Below, in pieces: positions 6,236 through 42,355 of a stretch of DNA of 64,000 nucleotides. The DNA comes from Dehalococcoidia bacterium (GTDB taxonomy: Bacteria > Chloroflexota > Dehalococcoidia > Lucifugimonadales > VXLM01): positions 712,507 through 776,506 of the forward strand of contig OY759598.1 of NCBI GenBank assembly GCA_963662435.1. Reading direction: 5' to 3'. The stretch's first letter is position 1, and every line of letters begins with the position of its first letter. Under the pieces are notes generated by a model. It saw only the letters and a program-made list of their open reading frames with translations. It did not search any database and was not told the DNA's origin. The position numbers were made by a program, and so were the translations under genes.

Positions 6236-6457
6236 TGGTCGCGGGCAACACGACGGTTGACATCCCCGCTCTGAAGGCGCGGCACCCGCTCGCTGAAGTG
6301 GTGGAGTCTGCCGGAGTGAAACTGCGAGGGAGAGGCAGGGTCCGCCAGGGCTTCTGTCCATTCCACGACGAGGCGGAGGGCAGCTTCACGGTGTACGGAG
6401 ACTCGGAGCGGTTCTACTGCTTCGGTTGTGGTGCCGGAGGCGACGTGCTGGACTTCA
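6235..6457 (+). CDS. DNA primase, exon 1 (CHC2 zinc finger)
   Basis: CPFHDEAEGSFTVYGDSERFYCFGCGAGGDVLDF. Homology ends exactly at the GTGCG that begins at 6458. Confidence 0.8.
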
Positions 6458-6969
6458 GTGCGCCGCGTAACACGGCATAGGATACCCGACTCAATCGGGA
6501 AGAACTCGGAGAAAGTTCTTGGGCCAACCGACCTACCTCAAGGCGAAAGCTAAGGGGGAAAACAGCATGTCGGTAAAGCGGCTACAGTCCCAAAGCGTTG
6601 TAGGACTGGTTCCGCAAGGCCCGCGCGATACGGTGAAAGCTAAACTGCCTCAACCCCAGCCCCCAGACGGTGACTCAGCACACCCGCCGGTAGAACGCTT
6701 GTAACCCGGCGCCACTCATTGCCCTGGTCTGATGAAGTTACCAATGCAACTCCGATGAGTGAACGATGGCCAATGCGGTCATTCAAGGGGACGAACGGGG
6801 CACCTACAGTCGCGCTAGATACGTCCTATGTCGAAGGAACGCGGGATGGCCTACGGGGGGAGACCCCTATGGTCACGGAGTCCTCGTAGTAGTCCGAGCC
6901 GGGGAAAGCCCGGCACATGGCGAAGGAGGACAGGTGTCAACGACGAACAAACACAGAGAGGTATGCAGA

Positions 6970-8742
6970 ATGCAACAAGCCGAAACTGTACTGAACGTCA
7001 TACGCGAACGCGGAGAACGAGGATTGCCGCTGGAGAACATCTATCGGCTGCTTTACAACCGGAACCTTTACCTGCGGGCCTACGGACGTATCTACTCAAA
7101 CCAGGGGGCTACGACCAAGGGAGTCACCGCAGAGACCGTGGACGGTATGTCACTGGCGAAAATCGACCGCATCATCGAAGCCTTGCGCTACGAGCGGTTC
7201 AGGTGGACGCCGGTGCGACGGGTCAACATTCCCAAGCCTAACGGCAAGACCCGCGCCCTGGGCCTACCGACGTGGACGGACAAGCTGCTGCAAGAGGTCA
7301 TTCGGATGATTCTGGAAGCCTACTACGAGCCGCAGTTCTCCGACCGCTCCCACGGCTTTCGGCCCGGTCGGGGGTGCCACACCGCCTTGGGCAACGTGAC
7401 CACCCACTGGACCGGTGTCCGCTGGTTCGTCGAGGGAGACATCAAAGGGTGCTTTGACAACATCGACCACGATGTCCTGTTGTCGGTGCTCGGCGAGAAG
7501 CTCCACGACAACCGATTCCTACGCCTGCTCAAGTACCTACTGAAGGCGGGCTACGTCGAGGATTGGAAGTATGGCCGCACGCTGAGCGGTACACCGCAAG
7601 GCGGCATCGTCAGCCCCATCCTCTCCAACGTTTACCTAGACCGGTTGGACAAGTACGTCGAGAACATGCTCATACCAGCCCACACCGATGGCTCAGACCG
7701 GAGAGACAACCGCGAGTACACACGTTTGCTGAAACAGGCGGCTTACCAGAGGAAACGGGGGAACCACGCCAAGGCACTGCAACTGCGCAAGCAAATGCAA
7801 CAACTGCCGTCACGCGACCCCTACGACCCTAGTTACCGCCGACTGCGGTACGTGCGCTACGCGGACGACTTCGTGCTGGGTTTCATCGGGCCAAAGGCCG
7901 AAGCCGAGCAGATAAAGGAGTCCTTGGAAACATTCCTGCGCGACTCACTCAAGCTGGAGCTATCCAGGGAGAAAACTCTCATAACCCACGCCACCAGCCA
8001 GGCGGCGCGGTTCCTCGGCTACGAACTTGTAAACCAGCAGGCCCACGACCAGTTCGACCAACGGGGTCGGCGCAAGGTCAATGGCCGCATTGGACTACGA
8101 GTTCCCGCCAAAGTCATCGAACAACACTGCCAAGCCTACATGAAAAACGGCAAACCGATTCACCGCAGCATGCTGATCCACGACGAGGACTACTCCATTG
8201 TGGAACAGTATCAGTCGGAGTTCCGGGGAGTCGTCGAGTACTACAAGCTCGCCATGAACGTCTCCCATTTCGGGAGACTGCAATGGATCATGGAGTGGTC
8301 GCTCGCCAAGACCCTTGCGGCCAAACACAAGACCACGTGCCGGAAGGTGTTTCGGAGCTACAAGAGCTCCGTCCCAACCGACCACGGGCCACGTAAATGC
8401 CTCAAGGTCATCAAGGAGCAGGGCAATGGGAAACCCCCAAAGGTGACGCAGTTCGGTGGCATACCCCTGAAGCGGAATCGGCAGGCAGTCCTCGTAGACC
8501 AGCAGCCTCAGCGGTACAGGACTGACCGCAACGAGCTTATCAAACGGCTCCTAGCGGACAAATGCGAGATGTGCGACTCAACGGTGAAGGTAGAAGTTCA
8601 CCACATCCGCGCACTTCGCGACCTGAACGTGAAAGGCCAACGGGAAAAGCCCAAGTGGGTTCAAATCATGGCGGCGCGAAAACGCAAGACCCTCGCGGTC
8701 TGCCGGACGTGTCACATGGACATCCACCACGGGCGAAAGTAA
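6970..8742 (+). CDS. Group II intron reverse transcriptase/maturase with a C-terminal HNH endonuclease
   Basis: Motifs: MQQAETVLNVIRERG..RLLYNRNLYLRAY..TAETVDGMS..IPKPNGKTRALGLPTWTDKLLQE..SHGFRPGRGCHTAL..YVRYADDFVLGF (YADD), then CEMCDS..VHHIRAL..CRTCHMDIHHG (HNH). Confidence 0.9.
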   Translation: MQQAETVLNVIRERGERGLPLENIYRLLYNRNLYLRAYGRIYSNQGATTKGVTAETVDGMSLAKIDRIIEALRYERFRWTPVRRVNIPKPNGKTRALGLPTWTDKLLQEVIRMILEAYYEPQFSDRSHGFRPGRGCHTALGNVTTHWTGVRWFVEGDIKGCFDNIDHDVLLSVLGEKLHDNRFLRLLKYLLKAGYVEDWKYGRTLSGTPQGGIVSPILSNVYLDRLDKYVENMLIPAHTDGSDRRDNREYTRLLKQAAYQRKRGNHAKALQLRKQMQQLPSRDPYDPSYRRLRYVRYADDFVLGFIGPKAEAEQIKESLETFLRDSLKLELSREKTLITHATSQAARFLGYELVNQQAHDQFDQRGRRKVNGRIGLRVPAKVIEQHCQAYMKNGKPIHRSMLIHDEDYSIVEQYQSEFRGVVEYYKLAMNVSHFGRLQWIMEWSLAKTLAAKHKTTCRKVFRSYKSSVPTDHGPRKCLKVIKEQGNGKPPKVTQFGGIPLKRNRQAVLVDQQPQRYRTDRNELIKRLLADKCEMCDSTVKVEVHHIRALRDLNVKGQREKPKWVQIMAARKRKTLAVCRTCHMDIHHGRK

Positions 8743-8856
8743 TCCGCGCAAGCAAAAGTAGGTAGTGTCAGACCCCAAACAATTGAATACGGCCCTTACG
8801 AAGCAATTCCTCAACCTGATAAACTAGCCAGCCATCATGACTGGAGGTTGAGGCCG

Positions 8857-9231
8857 ATGCCCAGAGTGACCGTGCTGACTCTCGTCTCCCTCCTGACCAT
8901 TGCATGTGGTCAGGTCTCTAATCCTTCAGCCCTAGACTTCACGGAACGCACGGCCGAATACGAGGCCCTAGTTGAAGACTTCAACGACCATTGGCGTCTA
9001 GAAAGCAGGATGTGGGCGAGATGGACAACTGCGCACATCGATAGGGATTTCCGCATCCCCGAGACGTGCAAAGAAACTCTGGCGCAGGCGCAAGAGCGAC
9101 ATACGGTATTGAACGACGCCATGCTTTTAGCCAGCCTCGACGGAAACAGGCGTGAAGCCTATGACCTGTTGGGGAAGAAGATCGCCCAGCTAAAGGAACT
9201 TGACGGTGACCTGAAACAAGGCTGCCGCTAG
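8857..9231 (+). CDS. Lipoprotein-like small protein encoded inside intron domain IV, downstream of the RT ORF
   Basis: GGAGG (8840-8844) precedes ATG 8857. Signal/lipobox-like MPRVTVLTLVSLLTIAC-GQ. Local GC is lower than in the flanking intron. Lies between the RT stop (8742) and domain V (9361). Confidence 0.5.
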   Translation: MPRVTVLTLVSLLTIACGQVSNPSALDFTERTAEYEALVEDFNDHWRLESRMWARWTTAHIDRDFRIPETCKETLAQAQERHTVLNDAMLLASLDGNRREAYDLLGKKIAQLKELDGDLKQGCR

Positions 9232-9360
9232 GAACAGTCGACACCGACCTCTTGTGCATCCTCACGCAACCGCATCACTAGAAATGCACTGCGCATCATA
9301 ACACGTGGTGCCCTTAGGGTACCGCGCCTACCTGACGACACTACCCACACCGACACTAGA

Positions 9361-9394
9361 GAGCCGGATGCGGTGAAAGCCGCACGTCCGGTTC
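9361..9394 (+). ncRNA. Group II intron domain V
   Basis: GAGCCGGATGCGGTGAAAGCCGCACGTCCGGTTC matches the canonical 34-nt domain V hairpin (AGC triad, GAAA-type loop, 2-nt bulge). Confidence 0.85.
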
Positions 9395-9457
9395 GGAGGG
9401 GGGCCGACGGAAAAGTGCCCTGAACGCTCAGGGTAACTCGCCGGCGGCCTACCCTAC

Positions 9458-10278
9458 CCCAGCGGGTCGAGGGTCTCACGCTGCCGGAGGCGATCCGGCG
9501 ACTAGAGAGCCAGAGGCCCGTTTCCGTAGCCACTCCGGTCTCGGTGGGTCATCCAGAGGTGGCGCCGCTTCCTCCCAGGGACCCGGCGTTGCTCACAGCT
9601 GCGGCGCGATTCTACGCCGGTCAGCTGCGGCGCAGTCCAACAGCGCAGGCGTACCTTGCCTCGCGGGGCATCGGGCTTGACTCCGCAGCCCGCCTGGGCC
9701 TTGGCTACTCGCCGGGCTTCGGGCTGTGGCAGGCTCTCGAGTCGGCTGGCTTCCCCGGGAAGCGCATCCGGGACTCGGGGTTGTTCATGGAGCGGGGAAC
9801 AGAGCGCTTCGCCGGGATGGTGATCGCTCCCGAGGTCTCCGGTGGGCTTGTCCGCTGGCTCGTGGGCCGGGCCATCGATCCAGACCGGACTCCCCGGTTC
9901 CAGGCGCTGCCCGGTCCCAAGCCGGTGCTTGGGCTTGGTCGTCTCGGCCCCGCGCCACCTCTTGCGGTCGTTGCCGAGGGCGTCTTCGACTGGCTTGCCC
10001 TTGCTTGCTGGGGCATACCCGCGGTCTCTGCCCTTGGTACCCAGGGGGTCGAGCGGATCGCGGGGGTCCTGCGGGGCACGCCCCGCGTCTTCCTTGCCTT
10101 CGACAACGACGCCGCTGGCCTTGAGGCCGCCGGGCGGCTTGCTGGCTTGCTTGGGCGCAGGGCCGCTGCTGTCACACTCCCCGATGGCGTCGGTGACGTG
10201 GCCGAACTTGCTTGCCTTCCCCAGGGCTACTCGCTCTTCCTCCGGCTGCTTGCACGGGCCGCCCGCGCCGCCCGGTAG
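9458..10278 (+). CDS. DNA primase, exon 2 (linker plus TOPRIM domain)
   Basis: In-frame continuation (A)CC CAG.. = T-QRVEGLTLPEAIRRLES, then LLTAAARFYAGQL..YLASRGI. TOPRIM motifs VVAEGVFDWLAL and FLAFDNDAAGLEAA. Confidence 0.8.
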
Positions 10279-28980: not shown

Positions 28981-29574
28981 ATGAAGATGCACAAGACCAT
29001 ACTGACGCTGCTGGCGGTGACGCTGGCAATCATCGGAACGACGGCGACGGTGGTACAGGCGGAGGGGCCGGCGGACAGCACTAGCTTCACTAACGTAATG
29101 GACGCCGAGACGACGACGCTGTACAACGAACTCTCCTCGCCTGCGCAAGGCTTGATGGAGCAGATTTGGGAACAGATTGAGGCGACGGCTCCCCAGGAAG
29201 CCTTTGGGCCTCAGGTAGCTCACTACGTTGCTGCGCTGCGTCAGGATCAGGAGGATATAGAGAACGCAGACCCCGCCGTCACTGCGGACTCAAACGGTAA
29301 CTGCACATCTGTAACAATGCACTCAAGTTTAACGAGCGGGTACTCGTCTGCAGTGACTGGATCGTTCGTGTCGTGCGCCGCTCTCAGCGCTAGCATTACG
29401 ATACAAGCGATTCCCGGCGCTGCGGACAGTGACGTGTGTAACAACTGCACACTGGCATTTGCGTATATCGCTGAGCCGCAAGACTACAATTTCTGGTCTG
29501 GACAGAGTGTGCATGAGTGGCAGTATCCCACCGATCTAGAAGTGCTATATCCAGACTGTTGGTGCGGCTACTAG
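28981..29574 (+). CDS. Secreted Cys-rich protein (197 aa)
   Basis: AGGAG upstream. Signal peptide MKMHKTILTLLAVTLAIIGTTATVVQA-EG. Eight Cys in the C-terminal half, ending CWCGY. Confidence 0.6.
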   Translation: MKMHKTILTLLAVTLAIIGTTATVVQAEGPADSTSFTNVMDAETTTLYNELSSPAQGLMEQIWEQIEATAPQEAFGPQVAHYVAALRQDQEDIENADPAVTADSNGNCTSVTMHSSLTSGYSSAVTGSFVSCAALSASITIQAIPGAADSDVCNNCTLAFAYIAEPQDYNFWSGQSVHEWQYPTDLEVLYPDCWCGY

Positions 29575-29667
29575 TAGCGTTCTCCGGCGTCGCACTGTGG
29601 CGACGCCGGAGAATGACTCCTGATACGACTTAAGATTCAGCCATAAGGTGACGTAGGAGATCAAGCC

Positions 29668-30750
29668 ATGACACGACACAAGGTCTTGGAGTTTGTGAGA
29701 ACAATAGTCTGGGGCAGCGTTACTTGTGGTTGCCTGCTATTGGTTGCGATTGGGTGCACAATCAACGGACCGGAGCCAGAGCCGACTAAGTCGGCTTCAG
29801 GAGAGCCAAAGTTGCCCCAAAGTACGCCTGGCATGATGACCGTAATCCCCGGAGAGTTGGAGTCGCTGCTTTCCGGAGACGTTTTGACCAAGTACAGAAA
29901 CCTGCCCGAGGAGTATCGCGAGGCTTTGCGAGCGTATCTCGCATTCGGTGTGTCGCGGGAGTTGGTTCCAACATTGGTGGAGCAGAAGATGGCCCAATGG
30001 CCGCCTTCACCCCCACCCTTGGAGGAATTGCTTGGAAGCGACAGAATTCAGGCCATAGAAAAGATCATTGAGACGGAGATTCGCGAGCCGGTTTCTAAAA
30101 CGTTGCCCTATGCGTCGTTTCTCCTCAACTACTACATCTACGTGCTCAACACTCAAGATACCGTTGCCGGCCAGCGCCAAGCTCTCACAGCACTAGCAGA
30201 CTCGCGATACGGTACGACGAATCGGGCGAAACGCGAGGCCGAGGCATTGGCAGACCACCAGTCCGGCGCGAACCAGACTGAAGTCGAGGCATTAGCAGAC
30301 CCACAACATGGAGCCACGAATCAGGCGGATCAGGTTCCAATGCCGAAACCAGAGTTGGGAAGTATCATCGCCCCCATCGCTCTGTCGCGGCTCAAAGAAT
30401 TGGGACCAAACTTCCGAAGCGTGGTCGAGTCCAAAGACGGCAAATGGCTTCCGCAAGACCCCAGCAGCATAGCCTTCTACCTTCTACACTCCGAAATCGG
30501 ATTGCTGAAGGCTGCCCCCGGCTTGGAGTTGCCTCCCATAGAACCGAGCCTAACCCAGGAGCAGTTGTCCGAGTTCAGGGCAATTTCTCCAACTGTCCAA
30601 GAGCGAGTGGAACAGTCCTATCACGCAACGGTATTCGCAAATATGATCGGTTCGTCCCTGTATGCGACTTCGCCAGCACTGTCATTACCGTCAACGGAGT
30701 CTCTTTCTGACATCGCGTCCAGTGTGTTGAGCGCAGGGAAGAAATTTTAA
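29668..30750 (+). CDS. Lipoprotein with degenerate ~30-35-aa helical repeats
   Basis: AGGAG upstream. Lipobox LLVAIGC. Repeats of the type LSGDVLTKYRNLPEEYREALRAYL and LTQEQLSEFRAISPTVQERVEQSY. Confidence 0.6.
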   Translation: MTRHKVLEFVRTIVWGSVTCGCLLLVAIGCTINGPEPEPTKSASGEPKLPQSTPGMMTVIPGELESLLSGDVLTKYRNLPEEYREALRAYLAFGVSRELVPTLVEQKMAQWPPSPPPLEELLGSDRIQAIEKIIETEIREPVSKTLPYASFLLNYYIYVLNTQDTVAGQRQALTALADSRYGTTNRAKREAEALADHQSGANQTEVEALADPQHGATNQADQVPMPKPELGSIIAPIALSRLKELGPNFRSVVESKDGKWLPQDPSSIAFYLLHSEIGLLKAAPGLELPPIEPSLTQEQLSEFRAISPTVQERVEQSYHATVFANMIGSSLYATSPALSLPSTESLSDIASSVLSAGKKF

Positions 30751-30822
30751 AAATGTAACTGATATGCACTTATGAGCGCTCGGAACCGCCGGAGTCCCAG
30801 GGAGGCCTGGAAGGGTCTCCAA

Positions 30823-30842
30823 AATCACACGATCGTGTGATT
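30823..30842. promoter_or_regulatory. Perfect 20-bp palindrome AATCACACGATCGTGTGATT (operator candidate)
   Basis: Exact inverted repeat 80 nt upstream of the lipoprotein ATG at 30922. An identical copy lies at 36398-36417. Confidence 0.6.
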
Positions 30843-30921
30843 ACAGGCACCGGGAAGTCCGCGTAGCCTGGGATTACAGGGAAGCAGGTTACGATGCACA
30901 CAGAGCAAGGAGGTGACGGAA

Positions 30922-31737
30922 ATGCAACGGATAACGAACATACGGATTTTCTTCATCGTCGCAGTGGTCGTGGTTGCTATGGCGTGTGGAACGTCCTCTC
31001 CTTCAGCGCAGCCCTCCTCTGTGACCAACGCGGTCCCAGCCGAGACGCGAGCCACTCCCGAACCGACTCCTTCGTCTACCCGGACTTCTACTCCCACACC
31101 AATTACGACGGAGATACCGGCGACTCCCGAGCCGTCCGCCTCAATACCGACCCCTGACAGCACCCAACCCGAAACCACGTCAAGCCCCGCGGCCTCCAGC
31201 CATGTGGTCGCTAGTTCCTTAGATGAACTCGTTGACTTTTCGACCCATGTGGTGACGGGCCGCTACACCAACCGGAAGACTGAGATTCACATCCCCAACA
31301 CCGGGCCGGACGGCCAACCGGACAATAGTATCGTCGGAGTCGGGGCCGTCTACACCATAGAGGTCGAAAGCTACCTGAAGGGAGACGGCGGGCGCGAGAT
31401 TCAAGTCGTTCAGATTGAACAGTTTCGGACTCAAAGCCCCGGAGAGGCGGCGAGAGTCTCTGATTTGGAGAACGCAGGCTTCCCGTTTGAACGAGATGGA
31501 CGGTATCTGCTGTTTCTGATGCCGCAGAGACAGGTCGGTAGTATGCCTGATCTCTTCTTGGGGGTAGCACAGCCATACAGGTTCAACCTAACCGCAGGCG
31601 AGGCGAAGGTGGATGGTCCCTTAGGCGATTTGTTCAGAGGTTTGCATGAAGGCACGGAGGCTATATTCCCCGACACCTCCGAGCAATCGCTGGTGGATCA
31701 GGTTCAGGCCATTGTTGCACAAACCCCCGGTCAGTAG
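30922..31737 (+). CDS. Lipoprotein with the conserved 5' cassette and a Pro/Thr linker (271 aa)
   Basis: AAGGAGG then ATG 30922. MQRITNIRIFFIVAVVVVAMAC-GTSSP. The C-terminal domain resembles the 33713-34333 product. Confidence 0.65.
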   Translation: MQRITNIRIFFIVAVVVVAMACGTSSPSAQPSSVTNAVPAETRATPEPTPSSTRTSTPTPITTEIPATPEPSASIPTPDSTQPETTSSPAASSHVVASSLDELVDFSTHVVTGRYTNRKTEIHIPNTGPDGQPDNSIVGVGAVYTIEVESYLKGDGGREIQVVQIEQFRTQSPGEAARVSDLENAGFPFERDGRYLLFLMPQRQVGSMPDLFLGVAQPYRFNLTAGEAKVDGPLGDLFRGLHEGTEAIFPDTSEQSLVDQVQAIVAQTPGQ

Positions 31738-31746
31738 AGGCGAACC

Positions 31747-32408
31747 ATGCAGCATCCTCAAGATGTGTTGCTCTCCCTGCTAATTGCTTCATGGCTTTTG
31801 GTCTCTGGGATCATGTTTGCTTGCAGCGGCGATCCATCCGATCCATGGACGCCGCTGCCGGCCGCGACTGTGGAACCGCTTCCGACGATACCCGCTCTGC
31901 CCGCGCGGACCCCGCGCGTGACTCCTACAGCACCGGTCGCCACACCCACGCCTCCTTCCATCGCACCCGCTCGCTCCCTGCCGCTTCCCAGCCTCCACGC
32001 TCGGCATGAGGGCCTGTATTACCCGGGGGACAGAACGGGAATCTGCTGGCCGATAACGTCGGAGCCGGGCGCTAAGTGTCATCTCATGACCGGTCTGTAC
32101 GCGGGGTGGGAGGGGTTCGACGAGGTTCCCGCGATTCGGCTGCGGGGCGACGAGGAGTTCCGCGTCATCCTGTCGAGCAGCAACACCCCGAAGGATTTGT
32201 TGAAGGTGACGGTCTCAGTGTGTTGGAGGAATCCCCGCGTCTACAGCGCGGGGATTTGCTGTTCGGGGACGACATCCCTTCGCGCGACTTCATAGATTAT
32301 GTATCGCTAGACCTGCCGCCCGGCATCTACTACATGCTGATCCACGCGATCTGGAAAGAAGACCGGGGACACATCTCCTACGGCTTCAAGGTCGAGATGG
32401 TCGAATAG
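31747..32408 (+). pseudogene. Lipoprotein gene with a frameshift near a GTGTGT tract
   Basis: Lipobox GIMFAC. Frame a reads ..EFRVILSSSNTPKDLLKVTVS up to about 32217. The protein-like sequence then continues in the -1 frame (LEESPRLQRGDLLFGDDIPSRDFIDYVSLDLPPGIYYMLIHAIWKEDRGHISYGFKVEMVE, stop 32408). Confidence 0.55.
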
Positions 32409-32538
32409 CCTCGGGCCGTCACGTGAAAACCAGACCTAGGTTCATAGTCTGTAATAGGAAATCGGACATGAACAGGCAACGGCGGCTCCGGGCGCGAGAG
32501 GGCTCGGAACCGCCGGAGTCCTCAGGGAGGTGGCGGAA

Positions 32539-32667
32539 ATGAAGCGGATAATGGACATACGGATTATCTTCGTCGTTATCGTGCTCGTGGTCGCTATGGC
32601 CTGTGGATCGTCCTCTCCTGCGGTGCAGCCCTCGCCGGTGACTAACGCGGTCTCGGCAGAAAACTAG
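32539..32667 (+). pseudogene. Remnant of the lipoprotein 5' cassette (signal peptide only, 42 codons)
   Basis: MKRIMDIRIIFVVIVLVVAMACGSSSPAVQPSPVTNAVSAEN-stop. Homology to the 34935 and 36497 genes ends at about 32686, where the inverted kinase remnant begins. Confidence 0.6.
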
Positions 32668-32687
32668 ACAACCCCCGAAACCCTGCC

Positions 32688-32785
32688 GCCAGTCGACGCT
32701 TCTCCGCCTCCGCGCTGAGGAGGCGCTTCCGCAGCGATTCGATCTCCCGTCTGAGCTCCTCGGCTTCCTGCAAAGTTACTGCCAT
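32688..32785 (-). pseudogene. Remnant of the first ~30 codons of the kinase/regulator fusion gene
   Basis: MAVTLQEAEELRREIESLRKRLLSAEAEKRRLAA compared with MQEADELRREIKDLRKRLLSAEAERRRLAA at 28550. The upstream 300 bp is also duplicated. Confidence 0.7.
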
Positions 32786-33088
32786 ACCGTCCGTTTCGTG
32801 GTGCCCCTCTACCCGGATACGACGGTCGGGATTGTACCACGAACCTTGAACGTCACAATCACATGATGGAGTCCCAAACTTCGATCTCCAGCGCCTGCAT
32901 CGTGGAAATTTATACAAAACTCTGCGGTTTTTTGATGGAAACGGGGCAAGTTTTTACGTCCATTTGATATCAGGCCTGTATCGTGAGGTGCATAACCCGA
33001 TGAGAGGAGGCGAGACGGTGAAGACGAAGGAGATTGAGGATTGAACATCCGAGGCCCCTCTGGGGGTACACAAGAAGGAGAAAGAACA

Positions 33089-33664
33089 ATGAAGTCCACA
33101 AGAGAATCGACTTTGGGAAGGGGATTCGTGGCCGCTATTGTTTCTGCGGCGTTGACTCTCGTAGTCCTGTGGGCCACAACTGGACCGGTCAACGCTTATT
33201 CGCTCCTTGGATGCGAATACGACAATGACTCAATTAGCCCAATCTCCTACCGGTTCTTCTCGGTCAATAGTGCCTATGTAACTGCATTCAGGAATGCAGA
33301 CATTGCTTGGGGCCAAACGTCCGCACCAGGGTACTTTGAAGAACACCCTTGGTCCCTTGATCCTGAGATCAACGTCGTTGACGGTGAGTACTCGGGTTCT
33401 TGGTGGGCTCAGGTAGTCTACACATGCGATAGCGACGGCACATACGATGGAAACGAGGTCGAAGCTCAATTCGACACCGGTGACATGGCGAGCCTTAGCG
33501 CCAATGAGAAGAAACTGGTTGCAGAACATGAGCTCGGTCACGCCTATGGGCTGGGCCACGTCTACAGTGGTTGCCACGTGATGAGACAGGGCACCTACAA
33601 GTTCACCTGTAGTGGCGCGCTTCCGTCCAGCGACGACGTTGCAGGAGTCGATGCAATCTACTAG
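33089..33664 (+). CDS. Small secreted metzincin-type zinc metalloprotease
   Basis: AAGGAGA upstream of ATG 33089. Signal peptide ..ALTLVVLWATTGPVNA. Motif HELGHAYGLGH (HExxHxxGxxH). Confidence 0.75.
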   Translation: MKSTRESTLGRGFVAAIVSAALTLVVLWATTGPVNAYSLLGCEYDNDSISPISYRFFSVNSAYVTAFRNADIAWGQTSAPGYFEEHPWSLDPEINVVDGEYSGSWWAQVVYTCDSDGTYDGNEVEAQFDTGDMASLSANEKKLVAEHELGHAYGLGHVYSGCHVMRQGTYKFTCSGALPSSDDVAGVDAIY

Positions 33665-33712
33665 GAAGAGGAATTCTGAATCTAAGCACGGTTCTCAGCA
33701 AGGAGAGTTGTC

Positions 33713-34333
33713 ATGCAGACATTGATTGCAAATCGTAAGGGGATGGGAGTCACGACCGCATTTGCGGTGTTAGCCTCCGTGCTGGTTGCGACAACGTGGT
33801 TCCTACTACAAGGAGGCGAGAAGGATAGACCTTCTTTTGGCGCCACCCCAGATATGCAAGTGTACTCCTCGATAGGAGAGTTGTCGAAGGCTTCCGACCT
33901 AGTGGTCTTGGGTACAATACGAGGAGTCGAGGCTCGCGAGACTGACTATGGAACGAGCGACCCCAACGAAAAGATTGACCGGATAGGCATTCCAACAGTG
34001 TTCTATGAGGTTGCAGTGACGGAAACTCTGCGTGGTGAGGCAAGTGGCAACATCATTGTAGGCGCGCCAGACGTAGACGAGATTTCGATTAAGGAGGCAA
34101 CAGCTCTACGAAGCGGTCAGCAGGTCCTGCTTTTTCTTAAGAGACAGACGACTGAAGACGCACCTGGCATCACAGCTTATACCGACTTTTACGTGACGGT
34201 GAGCCTGGACAACGGTGTTTTCAATCGTCTGAGTGACGATTCGGTCGAGCCGCGCATGTCTCAAGCCTTTGAAGCAGCAATCTTCAGTCTGGACGAGGTT
34301 AGGGAGCAGGCGCGACGAACATTTGTTCCGTGA
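33713..34333 (+). CDS. Secreted protein (206 aa), related to the C-terminal domain of the 30922-31737 lipoprotein
   Basis: AAGGAGAG upstream, with an N-terminal hydrophobic segment. Shared pattern: ..ELSKASDLVVLGTI..VFYEVAVTETLRGE..QQVLLFL.. here, versus ..ELVDFSTHVVTGRY..VYTIEVESYLKGD..RYLLFL.. in the lipoprotein. Confidence 0.55.
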   Translation: MQTLIANRKGMGVTTAFAVLASVLVATTWFLLQGGEKDRPSFGATPDMQVYSSIGELSKASDLVVLGTIRGVEARETDYGTSDPNEKIDRIGIPTVFYEVAVTETLRGEASGNIIVGAPDVDEISIKEATALRSGQQVLLFLKRQTTEDAPGITAYTDFYVTVSLDNGVFNRLSDDSVEPRMSQAFEAAIFSLDEVREQARRTFVP

Positions 34334-34382
34334 GGTGGTTGAGTTCGCGCGGCGAAGCGCAGCCGACCAAAGGAGCAACCTT

Positions 34383-34793
34383 ATGACTAACGGTTCCGGT
34401 TCAAGAGGATTCTTGTCCGGCCGTGTGGGACCCGTAATTATCGCCGTTGTGGTGACCGGGGTGGTGGTTTTCGTGGCTTGTTTCATGGTTTGGCACAACC
34501 TCGGTGGGGGTGCTTGGCGCAGCGAAGTGAGAGTAATGGAAGCGTACTTACTTGACCCGGACAGGCCGGACAGACTCACACTCGATGTCGCCTCCTGCAA
34601 CGGGGCCCCGCGCGTGTCGTTTCGAAAGACGGACGTCGACGTGCAAGTTAAGGTGATTGCCTTCTCCACTCCCTTCCATGGTGGCGGTGATTGCGATGAC
34701 GACGTTGATGTCTACCTTCAAGAGCCACTGGGAGACCGGGTCGTCGTTGACATGCACACCGGGCAAGTAGTGAGCGTGAGGACAGACAGGTGA
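34383..34793 (+). CDS. Membrane-anchored small protein (136 aa)
   Basis: AAGGAGC upstream of ATG 34383. TM segment VGPVIIAVVVTGVVVFVACFMVW. Confidence 0.5.
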   Translation: MTNGSGSRGFLSGRVGPVIIAVVVTGVVVFVACFMVWHNLGGGAWRSEVRVMEAYLLDPDRPDRLTLDVASCNGAPRVSFRKTDVDVQVKVIAFSTPFHGGGDCDDDVDVYLQEPLGDRVVVDMHTGQVVSVRTDR

Positions 34794-34934
34794 ATGCCTC
34801 GAATATCTGGGATACCCAAAGACCCATATGATAGGCGGAGAAGGAGAAACCACCAGTGTCCCAGGTAAGGACCGCGTAACTTGGGATTACAAGGAAGCGG
34901 GCGATGGTACAAACACCACAGGGAGGTGACGGAA

Positions 34935-36362
34935 ATGCAACGAATAACGAACATACGGTTTGTCTTCATCGTTGTCGTGCTCGTGGTCGTGGCGGCCTGT
35001 GGGACGTCCTCTCCTCCGGTGCAACCCTCGCCGGTGACTAACGCGGTCTCGGCAGAGGCGCAACCAACCCCCGAACCGCCCGCAGAGCCTGAGTTCGAAG
35101 GGACTCTTGAGGGCGACGACCTCGCCAAGTTCCAGGACCTGCCCTCGGAGTTCCAAGACGCCCTGCGGCAGGAGTTCGAGGATGCGGGCGAGGCTAAAGC
35201 GCTCGGTTATCTACGCGGCCTCCCTGACGAGACACCTACGATCTCGGAGATGTTGGATCCTGCGGCTCTTGGCTGGTTCGGCGTGCTACAGCCGTATGAG
35301 CAGCGCTTCCTTCTGCTGGAGGGGTATCCCGAGGTCTACCGAAGGAACGTGCAAGCGAGCCGAGAATTCAAGGGGGTCAAGTTCTCGTACAAGCACATGG
35401 TGGGAACCGTGTTCGACAATCGCGGGGTCAAGCTGCCGCCCATCGAAGAGGCGCTTTCGGCGGACGCGCAGGCGAAGCTCGACTCCATGGACGCGCTCCT
35501 GTCGCGGGCATTCAGGCTTGCGTGGGCCGAAGCAAAGCCCCGCCTGACGGAGGTGGACGATTCGATCAAGCGCGTGGAGGGCGGTCTGCTGACGGCGCCC
35601 AGGGAGATGCCGTCCCTGGCGGAACTGGGCCTTTCCGATGCGAGCATCGCGCAATTCCGCGCGCTTCCAGCCGAGATGCGAGACTGGCTTTGGAAGCAGG
35701 TGGCGCACGAACTGGTCACAAGGGGAAGCCTGAGCACCTACTCTGTCATGCGGGATGAGTACATCCAGGTACTGTCCGAACCCGGTGCCCTGGCGACCTT
35801 CAACCAAGGGATCATGCCGGTGCCAGAATACTCGCACGTGGGAACGACGTTCGCGTGCCTGGGAGGGCCTACCACGTGGCCGGATTCGGTGGCGGCGAGG
35901 ATGCCTGAGAGCTTTGGCGACCGGCCTGCTGTCTACCTTCCGCCATTCGAGGACGCGTTTTCTTCCGAGGCATTGGGCCAGCTGAACGAGCTGGACTCGA
36001 AGCTCCGGGCGGCCTTCGAAGACCGATGGAAGTGGTCCGGACCCTTCTCGCCCCAAAAGGCCTACTGCGAGATATCCAAGCTCGAACGCGGCATCCTCTA
36101 CATCCCCACGACGACCGCGCCCACCGCCGAATCCCTGCTGTCGCGGGAAGGGACAGCCCGCTACGCGACACTCTCCGATGAGTCCCGACAGCAGCTCGAG
36201 CGCGACATTGCGGATTCCATCATTATCGGGTGGGTCCTCGACCCTCGCGGGGGAGGACCCGTGATGTCCTTCAATACCCCTCACGATGAATTCCTGGACG
36301 CGCTTGGGGCCGAGTTAGAGGATCGGATCAAGATATGGGCTGGTAACCCCGCAGATTCGTAG
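34935..36362 (+). CDS. Lipoprotein with the conserved 5' cassette and degenerate helical repeats (475 aa)
   Basis: GGGAGG then ATG 34935. MQRITNIRFVFIVVVLVVVAAC-GTSSPPVQPSPVTNA. Repeats include LAKFQDLPSEFQDALRQEF, IAQFRALPAEMRDWLWKQV and ARYATLSDESRQQLERDI. Confidence 0.65.
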   Translation: MQRITNIRFVFIVVVLVVVAACGTSSPPVQPSPVTNAVSAEAQPTPEPPAEPEFEGTLEGDDLAKFQDLPSEFQDALRQEFEDAGEAKALGYLRGLPDETPTISEMLDPAALGWFGVLQPYEQRFLLLEGYPEVYRRNVQASREFKGVKFSYKHMVGTVFDNRGVKLPPIEEALSADAQAKLDSMDALLSRAFRLAWAEAKPRLTEVDDSIKRVEGGLLTAPREMPSLAELGLSDASIAQFRALPAEMRDWLWKQVAHELVTRGSLSTYSVMRDEYIQVLSEPGALATFNQGIMPVPEYSHVGTTFACLGGPTTWPDSVAARMPESFGDRPAVYLPPFEDAFSSEALGQLNELDSKLRAAFEDRWKWSGPFSPQKAYCEISKLERGILYIPTTTAPTAESLLSREGTARYATLSDESRQQLERDIADSIIIGWVLDPRGGGPVMSFNTPHDEFLDALGAELEDRIKIWAGNPADS

Positions 36363-42070: not shown

Positions 42071-42355
42071 ATGAGGACTTTGGTATTGCTGGCTATAGGT
42101 ATGATGTTGCTCTTGGCTTGTGGGGAACAGAGTGAGCAAGCCGCTATTCCTGAGCCGTCAGTTCACGCAGCTGCGAAAGATGTAGCGGTACTTGAATGCA
42201 CTTGGCACTATTCAGTCGGGGTGTCAGTGGTTATCATCAGGAACGGTAAGGATGAAGTCGTAGGGGGATTTGCGGTTGAGGACTCAATTTGTGCAGGCCT
42301 AGATTCTATCGGGCACAGAGAAATCGTGAGGTTATCCGAAGTTGAGCCACGTTGA
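42071..42355 (+). CDS. Small lipoprotein (94 aa)
   Basis: AGGAGG upstream. Lipobox MMLLLAC-GEQ. Low GC. Confidence 0.5.
   Translation: MRTLVLLAIGMMLLLACGEQSEQAAIPEPSVHAAAKDVAVLECTWHYSVGVSVVIIRNGKDEVVGGFAVEDSICAGLDSIGHREIVRLSEVEPR

Follow-up and report, generated by a model that had tools for sequence, protein, structure and literature searches.

The DNA examined here is a 64,000-nt stretch from a Dehalococcoidia bacterium (contig OY759598.1), called the window below. At 6458–9457 it holds a complete group II intron of the LtrA-like kind, inserted in a primase gene. In most accounts, group II introns are minimal selfish retroelements whose only gene is that for their own reverse transcriptase (RT). 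In this intron, a second gene, for a lipoprotein-like protein of 124 aa, lies between the RT gene and ribozyme domain V. The segment that contains it (8743–9358) is very probably a passenger-gene cassette, seated in the 3′ portion of domain IV, within an intron that is intact and mobile. The locus is composed as follows.

6262–6457, plus strand: 5′ exon, the CHC2 zinc-ribbon part of the primase (Pfam Zn_ribbon_DnaG, E 2e-17).
6458–9457, plus strand: complete LtrA-like group II intron of 3000 nt, interrupting a CHC2-zinc-finger/Toprim primase gene.
6970–8742, plus strand: intron-encoded protein (IEP) of 590 aa, with RT, maturase X and HNH endonuclease parts (Pfam RVT_1, Intron_maturas2, AI2M-like_HNH).
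8743–9358, plus strand: cargo slot from the IEP stop to domain V, 616 nt, with other, unrelated inserts in 34 relatives.
9359–9457, plus strand: ribozyme domains V and VI (Rfam RF00029, 67.4 bits, gathering score 40).
9458–10278, plus strand: 3′ exon, the remaining primase with its DnaG N-terminal core and Toprim (Pfam Toprim_2, Toprim_3, DNAG_N).

The intron starts with GTGCG at 6458 and ends with CCTAC at 9457, in agreement with the consensus (5′ GUGCG, 3′ AY). Once joined, the exons read in frame as a continuous primase (...GGDVLDF-T-QRVEGLTLPEAIRRLE), and the gene order at the orthologous loci L002–L004 matches that of the window's primase locus. The best solved relative of the IEP is LtrA of the intron Ll.LtrB (E 9e-125, full-length match), and the intron was therefore assigned to the LtrA (mitochondrial-like, ML) type. 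Against TIGR04416 the IEP scored 282.6, slightly below the cut-off of 300. In its boundaries, its IEP and its domains V and VI, the window intron has the make-up of a mobile group II intron. The slot between the IEP stop codon (TAA, 8740–8742) and domain V contains the following elements.

8758–8769, plus strand: 5′ arm of a closing helix, GT.GGTAGTGTC, which pairs with 9337–9348 in the minimum-free-energy fold.
8783–8795, plus strand: leader motif TTGAATACGGCCC, present also in the cassettes of L033, L052, L059, L043 and L008, which have unrelated open reading frames (ORFs).
8817–8825, plus strand: extended −10-like TGATAAACT, a weak candidate internal promoter read from the sequence, with counterparts TGGTACACT and TGGTAAAAT in other cassettes.
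8843–8847, plus strand: Shine-Dalgarno (SD) sequence GGAGG, 9 nt upstream of the ATG and identical in L001.
8857–9231, plus strand: cargo gene, lipoprotein-like, 124 aa, with signal peptide, Cys17, three-helix bundle and Cys71/Cys123.
9304–9326, plus strand: trailer hairpin CGTGGTGCCC-TTA-GGGTACCGCG, seen in the fold, with no U-tract.
9337–9348, plus strand: closing helix, 3′ arm, GACACTACC.AC, which stops 10 nt short of domain V (13 nt for its GACACTACC core).

The cargo ORF has 124 codons, from the ATG at 8857 to a TAG at 9229–9231. Its product begins with a short basic region and a hydrophobic stretch, followed by Cys17 (MPRVTVLTLVSLLTIAC-GQ). The 12 aligned members of the protein family all have this lipobox cysteine, and Cys71, Cys123, S24, L26, E30, R31, Y102 and G106 are likewise invariant. 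From its signal peptide and lipobox, the product is predicted to be a small exported lipoprotein. An AlphaFold2 model computed with the family alignment as input consists of a signal helix and a three-helix bundle (residues 25–46, 69–94 and 98–120), with a mean pLDDT of 78.6 and values above 90 in the helices. A preliminary description of the stretch, made without database searches, had pointed to an unusually long gap before domain V, to a 124-codon ORF with its own GGAGG, to a signal/lipobox-like N-terminus and to a lower GC content of the segment. The first three are borne out, the gap being 6–25 nt in 34 of 69 measurable relatives. The GC content does go in the direction described (0.54–0.55 in the insert versus 0.57–0.60 in the rest of the intron), but the difference is marginal, and the host gene has 0.70.

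The ORF diverges in the manner of a coding sequence. Its dN/dS ratio (non-synonymous to synonymous changes, Nei-Gojobori) was 0.37 relative to L001, 0.28 relative to L083 and 0.22 relative to L052. The 50 differences between the window and L001 fall 13/10/27 on the three codon positions, with zero indels over 375 nt. Between the same two sequences the leader is 89% identical, more than the ORF, and the 3′ trailer only 63%. Judged from these comparisons, ORF 8857–9231 is a real gene under constraint.

A word-indexed search with the cargo protein returned one homolog only (P0002, 79% identity). When 1.84 billion representative proteins were searched exhaustively with HMMER, 17 family members were found, most of them 107–144 aa long, and a profile word-search with the family alignment gave five matches, all unnamed. 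No family member was found in JGI metagenome contigs, and only two partial matches (30% identity) in IMG/VR. Exact look-up of the ORF product gave no record, and plasmid and phage collections, searched by blastn with the segment, contained no match. One intron relative, L052, has an about 40% identical family member (P0128) in the same slot. Outside introns, the family extends to free-standing genes of 35–59% identity, in which the invariant residues are kept and which lie in chromosomal or prophage-like settings on metagenomic contigs. L083 (P0123, 59% identity) has the gene behind an ABC_tran and MacB_PCD/FtsX transporter pair; in L084 (P0125) it adjoins five tRNA genes; in L096 (P0136) it has a DDE transposase on one side and a SIR2_2 gene on the other. 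The homolog in L094 (P0124, 54%) overlaps the end of a repressor gene of the CI/LexA-like type (HTH_31 and Peptidase_S24), opposite which lie a series of small divergent genes and a DnaA_N gene, a layout resembling that of prophage immunity regions. Because these homologs resemble the window across the ORF alone (8847–9233), the intron appears to hold a cellular or prophage-type gene, and not an intron-specific one.

Two larger proteins, P0129 (1793 aa) and P0132 (1247 aa), match residues 54–106 of the ORF repeatedly, P0129 in 10 and P0132 in 8 separate places, so that the unit formed by helices 2 and 3 is found in giant proteins too, as a tandem repeat. In L001 (230–351, 351–847) the cassette copy directly abuts a 75%-identical RT maturase fragment (VIEQHCQAYM...); the sequence after the copy is unrelated and lacks a domain V. 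From this arrangement, L001 looks like an internally deleted, decayed intron.

The slot was then considered across the relatives of the intron. The RT has about 8000 relatives, and those of more than 80% identity number in the thousands. A scan of GTDB genomes gave 78 loci, all from Dehalococcoidia metagenome-assembled genomes (MAGs), several of which have multiple copies, and one of which is labelled SAR202; the class includes this marine group. The distance from RT stop to domain V could be measured in 69 of the 78 loci and is bimodal: 6–7 nt in 30 loci, 12–25 nt in four, and 339–1088 nt in 35. The slot is thus empty in 34 of 69 loci, the full intron length of compact relatives being about 2408 nt, and filled in 35, all of which have an intact RT. 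In six more distant LtrA-like introns the gap is roughly 15–45 nt, and the RT search in IMG/VR found relatives at 39–52% only.

The 35 inserts form at least 14 groups unrelated by blastn, and nearly every one is filled by a single sense-strand ORF of 72–235 aa. By a simple test of signal/lipobox and hydropathy, 20 of the 35 products are lipoprotein-like, nine are membrane proteins with 1–4 helices and six are neither; one is a DUF4377 lipoprotein. The 932-nt cassette of L008 encodes a non-secreted protein of 235 aa with a weak DUF429 match (E 0.003), so the slot is not limited to envelope proteins. The cargo slot is a recurrent and exchangeable feature of the whole clade, of which the window gene is one occupant. 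The earlier proposal of a secreted-protein gene carried in domain IV is supported, and in respect of the recurrent slot it was an understatement.

One set of cassettes, called type A, occurs in L013, L017, L022, L025, L027, L028, L032, L042, L044, L053, L078 and L080. Its lipoproteins have a common leader and signal peptide (MTSESEHTNRQRSPQQAQGRQWPILVLLLGLAALALALTACGG...), and their mature domains differ, being helical or beta-rich. Close pairs have dN/dS values of 0.8–1.9, with intact ORFs. These patterns suggest domain swapping, possibly with diversifying selection.

Filled introns are built on a common plan, ...TCCGCGCAAGCAACAGTA-GGTAGTGTCA, leader, SD, ORF, GC-rich hairpin, TGACACTACC-CACATCGACACTG, and then the GAGAGCC of domain V. 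Empty introns read TCCGCAGAAGCAGACATAAACCACTG directly followed by GAGAGCC. In the window, the core of the closing helix has 9–10 bp (8761–8769 with 9337–9345, and flanking pairs at 9346–9348), and in the minimum-free-energy fold it encloses the entire insert. Helices were scored for pairing directly: the arms pair as a 9–10 bp helix in 24 of 30 distinct sequences, and in nearly all cargo-bearing relatives. Arm variants that preserve pairing are found in L002 (T-A for C-G), L057 (GCGTCTG/CAGACGC), L007 and L008; in L042 and L052, G-U pairs do so. Within the helix, two leader/trailer frames recur around unrelated ORFs. That of the window (TTGAATACGGCCC leader, CACGTGGTGCCC... hairpin) is common to L033, L052, L059 and L043, and hairpins related to the window's trailer close the cassettes of L033, L052 and L059. 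Type-A cassettes end with a GC hairpin followed by a T-run.

Identical copies of intron plus cargo were found at different genomic sites, which indicates that the introns move with their cargo. In L062 and L063, which belong to one genome and have paralogous methylase-like targets, intron and cargo are 100% identical over 3011 nt, whereas the flanks share 67–80% identity. L059, from another genome, is also 100% identical to L063 over intron and cargo, with flanks at 78–81%. Similar values were obtained for L050/L055 (99.6–100%; flanks 62–71%) and for L014/L016 (100%; flanks 82–88%). As read from these alignments, near-identical copies among the relatives show that cassette-bearing introns have been copied intact to new sites.

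Other comparisons reveal the reverse situation, in which the intron is nearly constant and the cassette changes. L007 and L008 come from a single genome; they share 99.8% identity over ribozyme and RT, and hold unrelated cassettes of 381 and 932 nt. The window, L002, L003 and L004 have the intron at the same primase site, with 95–98% identity in ribozyme and RT and 73–77% in the flanks, the intron DNA being much better conserved than the host genes. Together these four loci have three unrelated cassettes or, in L004, none. Cassettes of type B, like those of type C, were found in different RT clades and in association with different target sites. Unrelated cassettes within nearly identical introns indicate that cassettes are exchanged. 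The window itself may be an example: its domains V–VI are 99% identical to those of L014/L016 and only 94% to those of its closest relatives L002–L004, which suggests that its 3′ end, including the cassette, came from another lineage.

The target genes of the introns belong to one family of phage-like or integrative and conjugative element (ICE)-like elements, and comprise a primase (two sites), an SNF2-like helicase (at least four sites), a methylase-like gene and others. The same phage- or ICE-like genes are present at 5–20 kb in the window. This conserved gene set (primase, Rad52/22, DUF7007, TSCPD, SSB, methylase-like and SNF2-like helicase genes), which is a hot-spot of the intron clade with at least eight distinct insertion sites, was seen there as well as in L002–L004, L008, L013, L017, L035, L061 and L063.

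How a cassette would be maintained and spread can be pictured as follows. The closing helix may shield the ribozyme fold from the insert, so that splicing and retrohoming persist. Translation of the cargo would begin at the cassette's ribosome-binding site, and the RNA used could be the unspliced transcript, the intron RNA after excision, or a message started at a weak internal promoter. Cassettes may be swapped by recombination, or by template switching of the reverse transcriptase, over the conserved flanks.

Three other explanations of the segment were weighed. According to the first, the ORF is a neutral passenger, a cellular sequence that a permissive loop took up by accident, template switching being one possible way, and that is carried for a time with no function for intron, element or host. 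The constraint between the window and L001 (dN/dS of 0.37, excess of third-position changes, no indels, leader conserved above the ORF) speaks against this, and a random capture process would not produce the observed bias to sense-strand lipoprotein and membrane genes with ribosome-binding sites. Moreover, the cassette ORFs are open in 35 of 35 cases, whereas simulated neutral change predicts that only 8–20% of such pairs would be. What a neutral passenger would account for is the fast turnover of cassettes, with a slot empty in many relatives, a dN/dS of about 1 in the largest cassette group, the lack of any matching functional annotation, and the fact that the sole other copy of the window cassette lies in a degraded intron. 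On balance, we regard it as improbable.

Alternatively, the segment could be a non-autonomous transposon of the miniature inverted-repeat (MITE-like) kind, bounded by the inverted repeats GGTAGTGTCA...TGACACTACC and bringing its own cargo, for which the intron would be just a landing site. A 9–10 bp inverted repeat does bound almost all inserts, and subterminal leader and trailer sequences are common to cassettes with different ORFs, but both arms are confined to intron slots across the 683 kb searched, filled and empty sites show no target-site duplication, and the inserts have no associated transposase. The few compensatory arm variants (L002, L057) point instead to an RNA helix, and where cassette and intron were copied together, the copies are 100% identical. 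A transposon of this kind is very unlikely. Finally, the idea of a non-coding but structured extension to domain IV, in which the ORF is fortuitous, is largely refuted, for although the insert region is more stably folded than shuffled controls (z −2.8) and spurious ORFs are frequent in high-GC DNA, the segment is non-homologous among introns with 95–98% identical ribozyme and RT DNA, its substitutions follow a coding pattern, and the protein family reaches free-standing genes at 35–59% identity with the invariant residues.

The two checks that the preliminary description had proposed therefore both favour a gene: the segment is not a conserved non-coding RNA in close relatives, since L002–L004 hold two unrelated inserts or none, and the ORF shows coding conservation (dN/dS 0.22–0.37, 13/10/27, no indels) within a family of 17 representatives. 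Separately, a twintron was considered and rejected, RF00029 being matched once in the whole window and 8743–9358 containing no RT-like ORF.

The passenger-gene cassette remains the preferred reading of 8743–9358, and several observations weigh against it. The lipobox of the cargo protein is non-canonical, with a Thr at position −3 (TIAC), most relatives having L/V/A-x-[AGS]-C. No family in Pfam or NCBIfam matched the cargo ORF; PHROGs and PADLOC, searched with it and nine other cargo proteins, gave only weak signal-peptide-like matches; and Foldseek found nothing at E <1 for the model among PDB and viral structures (BFVD). The ORF thus has no sequence or fold homology to described superinfection-exclusion or anti-phage families in PADLOC, PHROGs, PDB and BFVD. 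The only other copy of the window's exact cassette is the one in the decayed fragment L001, and all relatives come from metagenome-assembled genomes. The other cassette ORFs, though intact, have dN/dS values of 0.6–1.9, which fit diversifying selection and surface proteins that evolve fast, but also relaxed constraint. Covariation in the closing helix is modest, with few variants, most copies being invariant. As to expression, a sigma-70 scan of 8600–9500 found no promoter and no plus-strand terminator, and the trailer hairpin lacks a U-tract, so that autonomous expression of the window cassette is no more than a possibility. In addition, the ribosome-binding region is partly paired in the minimum-free-energy fold.

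Concerning this pairing, CCTCAACC (8809–8816) pairs with GGTTGAGG (8846–8853), partly over the ribosome-binding region, and both halves are conserved in L001. It may be a translational control hairpin, or due to chance.

A second place for inserts exists in the 5′ part of the ribozyme.

6835–6836, no strand assigned: second cargo slot, empty in the window, between ...CCTATGTCGAA and GGAACGCGGGATGG in the 5′ ribozyme region.

It is filled, with 246–611 nt, in 15 relatives (L004, L005, L006, L010, L019, L023, L024, L026, L030, L036–L039, L041 and L082). Each insert has an antisense ORF with its own AGGAGG and ATG, which encodes a small single-pass membrane protein of 59–169 aa. In most introns with a filled second slot, the 3′ slot is empty. 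By analogy, and as a speculation, this layout recalls type I toxin-antitoxin systems.

Taken together, the two slots raise the question of whether the whole clade acts as a carrier of cassettes. It would then have two helix-insulated slots (3′ sense and 5′ antisense), filled mainly with genes for fast-evolving envelope proteins that were captured from cells or prophages and are shuffled between introns, either by recombination or by template switching of the RT. Retrohoming would carry these cassettes to further genes within an element of phage- or ICE-like type. We find this a serious candidate, with the balance tipped slightly against it. If this is true, the clade would play a part in surface or phage conflicts comparable to that of integrons and morons, but based on RNA. 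The cargo product, for its part, would work at the cell envelope and benefit the mobile element that hosts the intron, in a moron-like manner, for example by superinfection exclusion or lysogenic conversion. The type of protein, the mobile-element setting and the repressor-adjacent homolog are what hint at such a function, which we hold as a tentative and rather doubtful proposal.

Small envelope lipoproteins with roles in lysogenic conversion or superinfection exclusion are known from phages: Ltp of TP-J34, Llp of T5 and Cor of phi80. Like phage morons, the cassettes place a small accessory envelope-protein gene within the backbone of a mobile element; one family member (L094) lies right behind a CI/LexA-like repressor, and the genes that host the intron form a module for replication of phage- or ICE-like type. 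They differ in that no similarity of sequence or fold was found, and in that the vehicle is an intron and not an intergenic site. Morons have their own promoter and terminator; of such signals, the window cassette has only the extended −10-like TGATAAACT and a hairpin without U-tract, and the type-A cassettes of relatives do have a hairpin with a T-run behind it.

With integron cassettes, the introns have in common a fixed slot, many alternative and mostly single-gene cassettes, and conserved, pairable borders. In contrast to integrons, there is one cassette per slot and no array, and the spread would occur via reverse transcription of intron RNA. No integrase, attC or attI appeared in the gene calls and Pfam matches at the surveyed loci, in which no dedicated search for them was made. 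Among retroelements, LTR retrotransposons of bdelloid rotifers have reportedly captured additional ORFs. They too are retroelements with extra, non-replicative ORFs, and differ in their eukaryotic host, element class and types of cargo.

The closest counterpart is engineered. Ll.LtrB targetrons with inserts in domain IVb likewise carry a foreign gene in the domain IV loop of an LtrA-type intron, copied by retrohoming, and the size ceiling is similar: the natural cargo maximum is about 1.09 kb (1.1 kb), which matches the reported limit of about 1 kb for Ll.LtrB in L. lactis, in which cargo of more than 1 kb abolishes retrohoming (PMC8524655). Unlike targetrons, the introns described here occur in nature, and the complete IEP gene is retained in cis. 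They also have a dedicated, conserved closing helix with leader/trailer frames, many alternative cassettes that are exchanged, and, in relatives, a second slot with antisense genes.

As for natural variants, the catalogued ones include ORF-less introns, twintrons, LAGLIDADG-encoding introns and introns with 3′ extensions (Zimmerly and Semper 2015, PMC4424553). There, as here, extra sequence sits within a standard intron, domain IV being a place that accepts insertions. Compared with these variants, the present insert is no intron, homing endonuclease or insertion sequence (IS), and contains a gene for an envelope protein of cellular type. A term search of the text of this review gave no mention of cargo, second ORF or additional ORF (PMC4424553). 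In the full text of open-access papers and bioRxiv, engineered targetrons were the only group II introns found with passenger genes, and no natural one was, although a report may have been missed.

A clade found in nature, with diverse and exchangeable envelope genes in about half of its copies and with demonstrable movement of these genes, would add a new route of gene transfer in Dehalococcoidia. It would also show how much cargo a ribozyme tolerates, and by what means (closing helix, leader/trailer frames, a ceiling of about 1.1 kb), and would in this way supply design rules for cargo targetrons, whose efficiency drops with insert size. The capture of cellular mRNA by retroelements in bacteria would become testable.

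Some minor observations concern the rest of the window and the arrangement of intron copies. The preliminary description had seen in the cargo an echo of lipoproteins at 29–38 kb. ORFs with signal-peptide/lipobox-like N-termini do occur at 28981–36362 and 42071–42355 (e.g. at 29668, 30913, 31747, 34881 and 42071), but tblastn found no ORF similar to the cargo in the window, and the echo was not retained. Two of these lipoprotein-like ORFs at 29–42 kb have a common N-terminal motif, MQRITNIR.... In L005/L006 and in L010, introns are placed head-to-tail, the 3′ end of one copy (...CCTATCCTAC) being directly followed by the GTGCGCCGCGTAACGCGG of another, so as to form tandem arrays. In L078, a short 5′ intron remnant is retained beyond the 3′ end of the intron.

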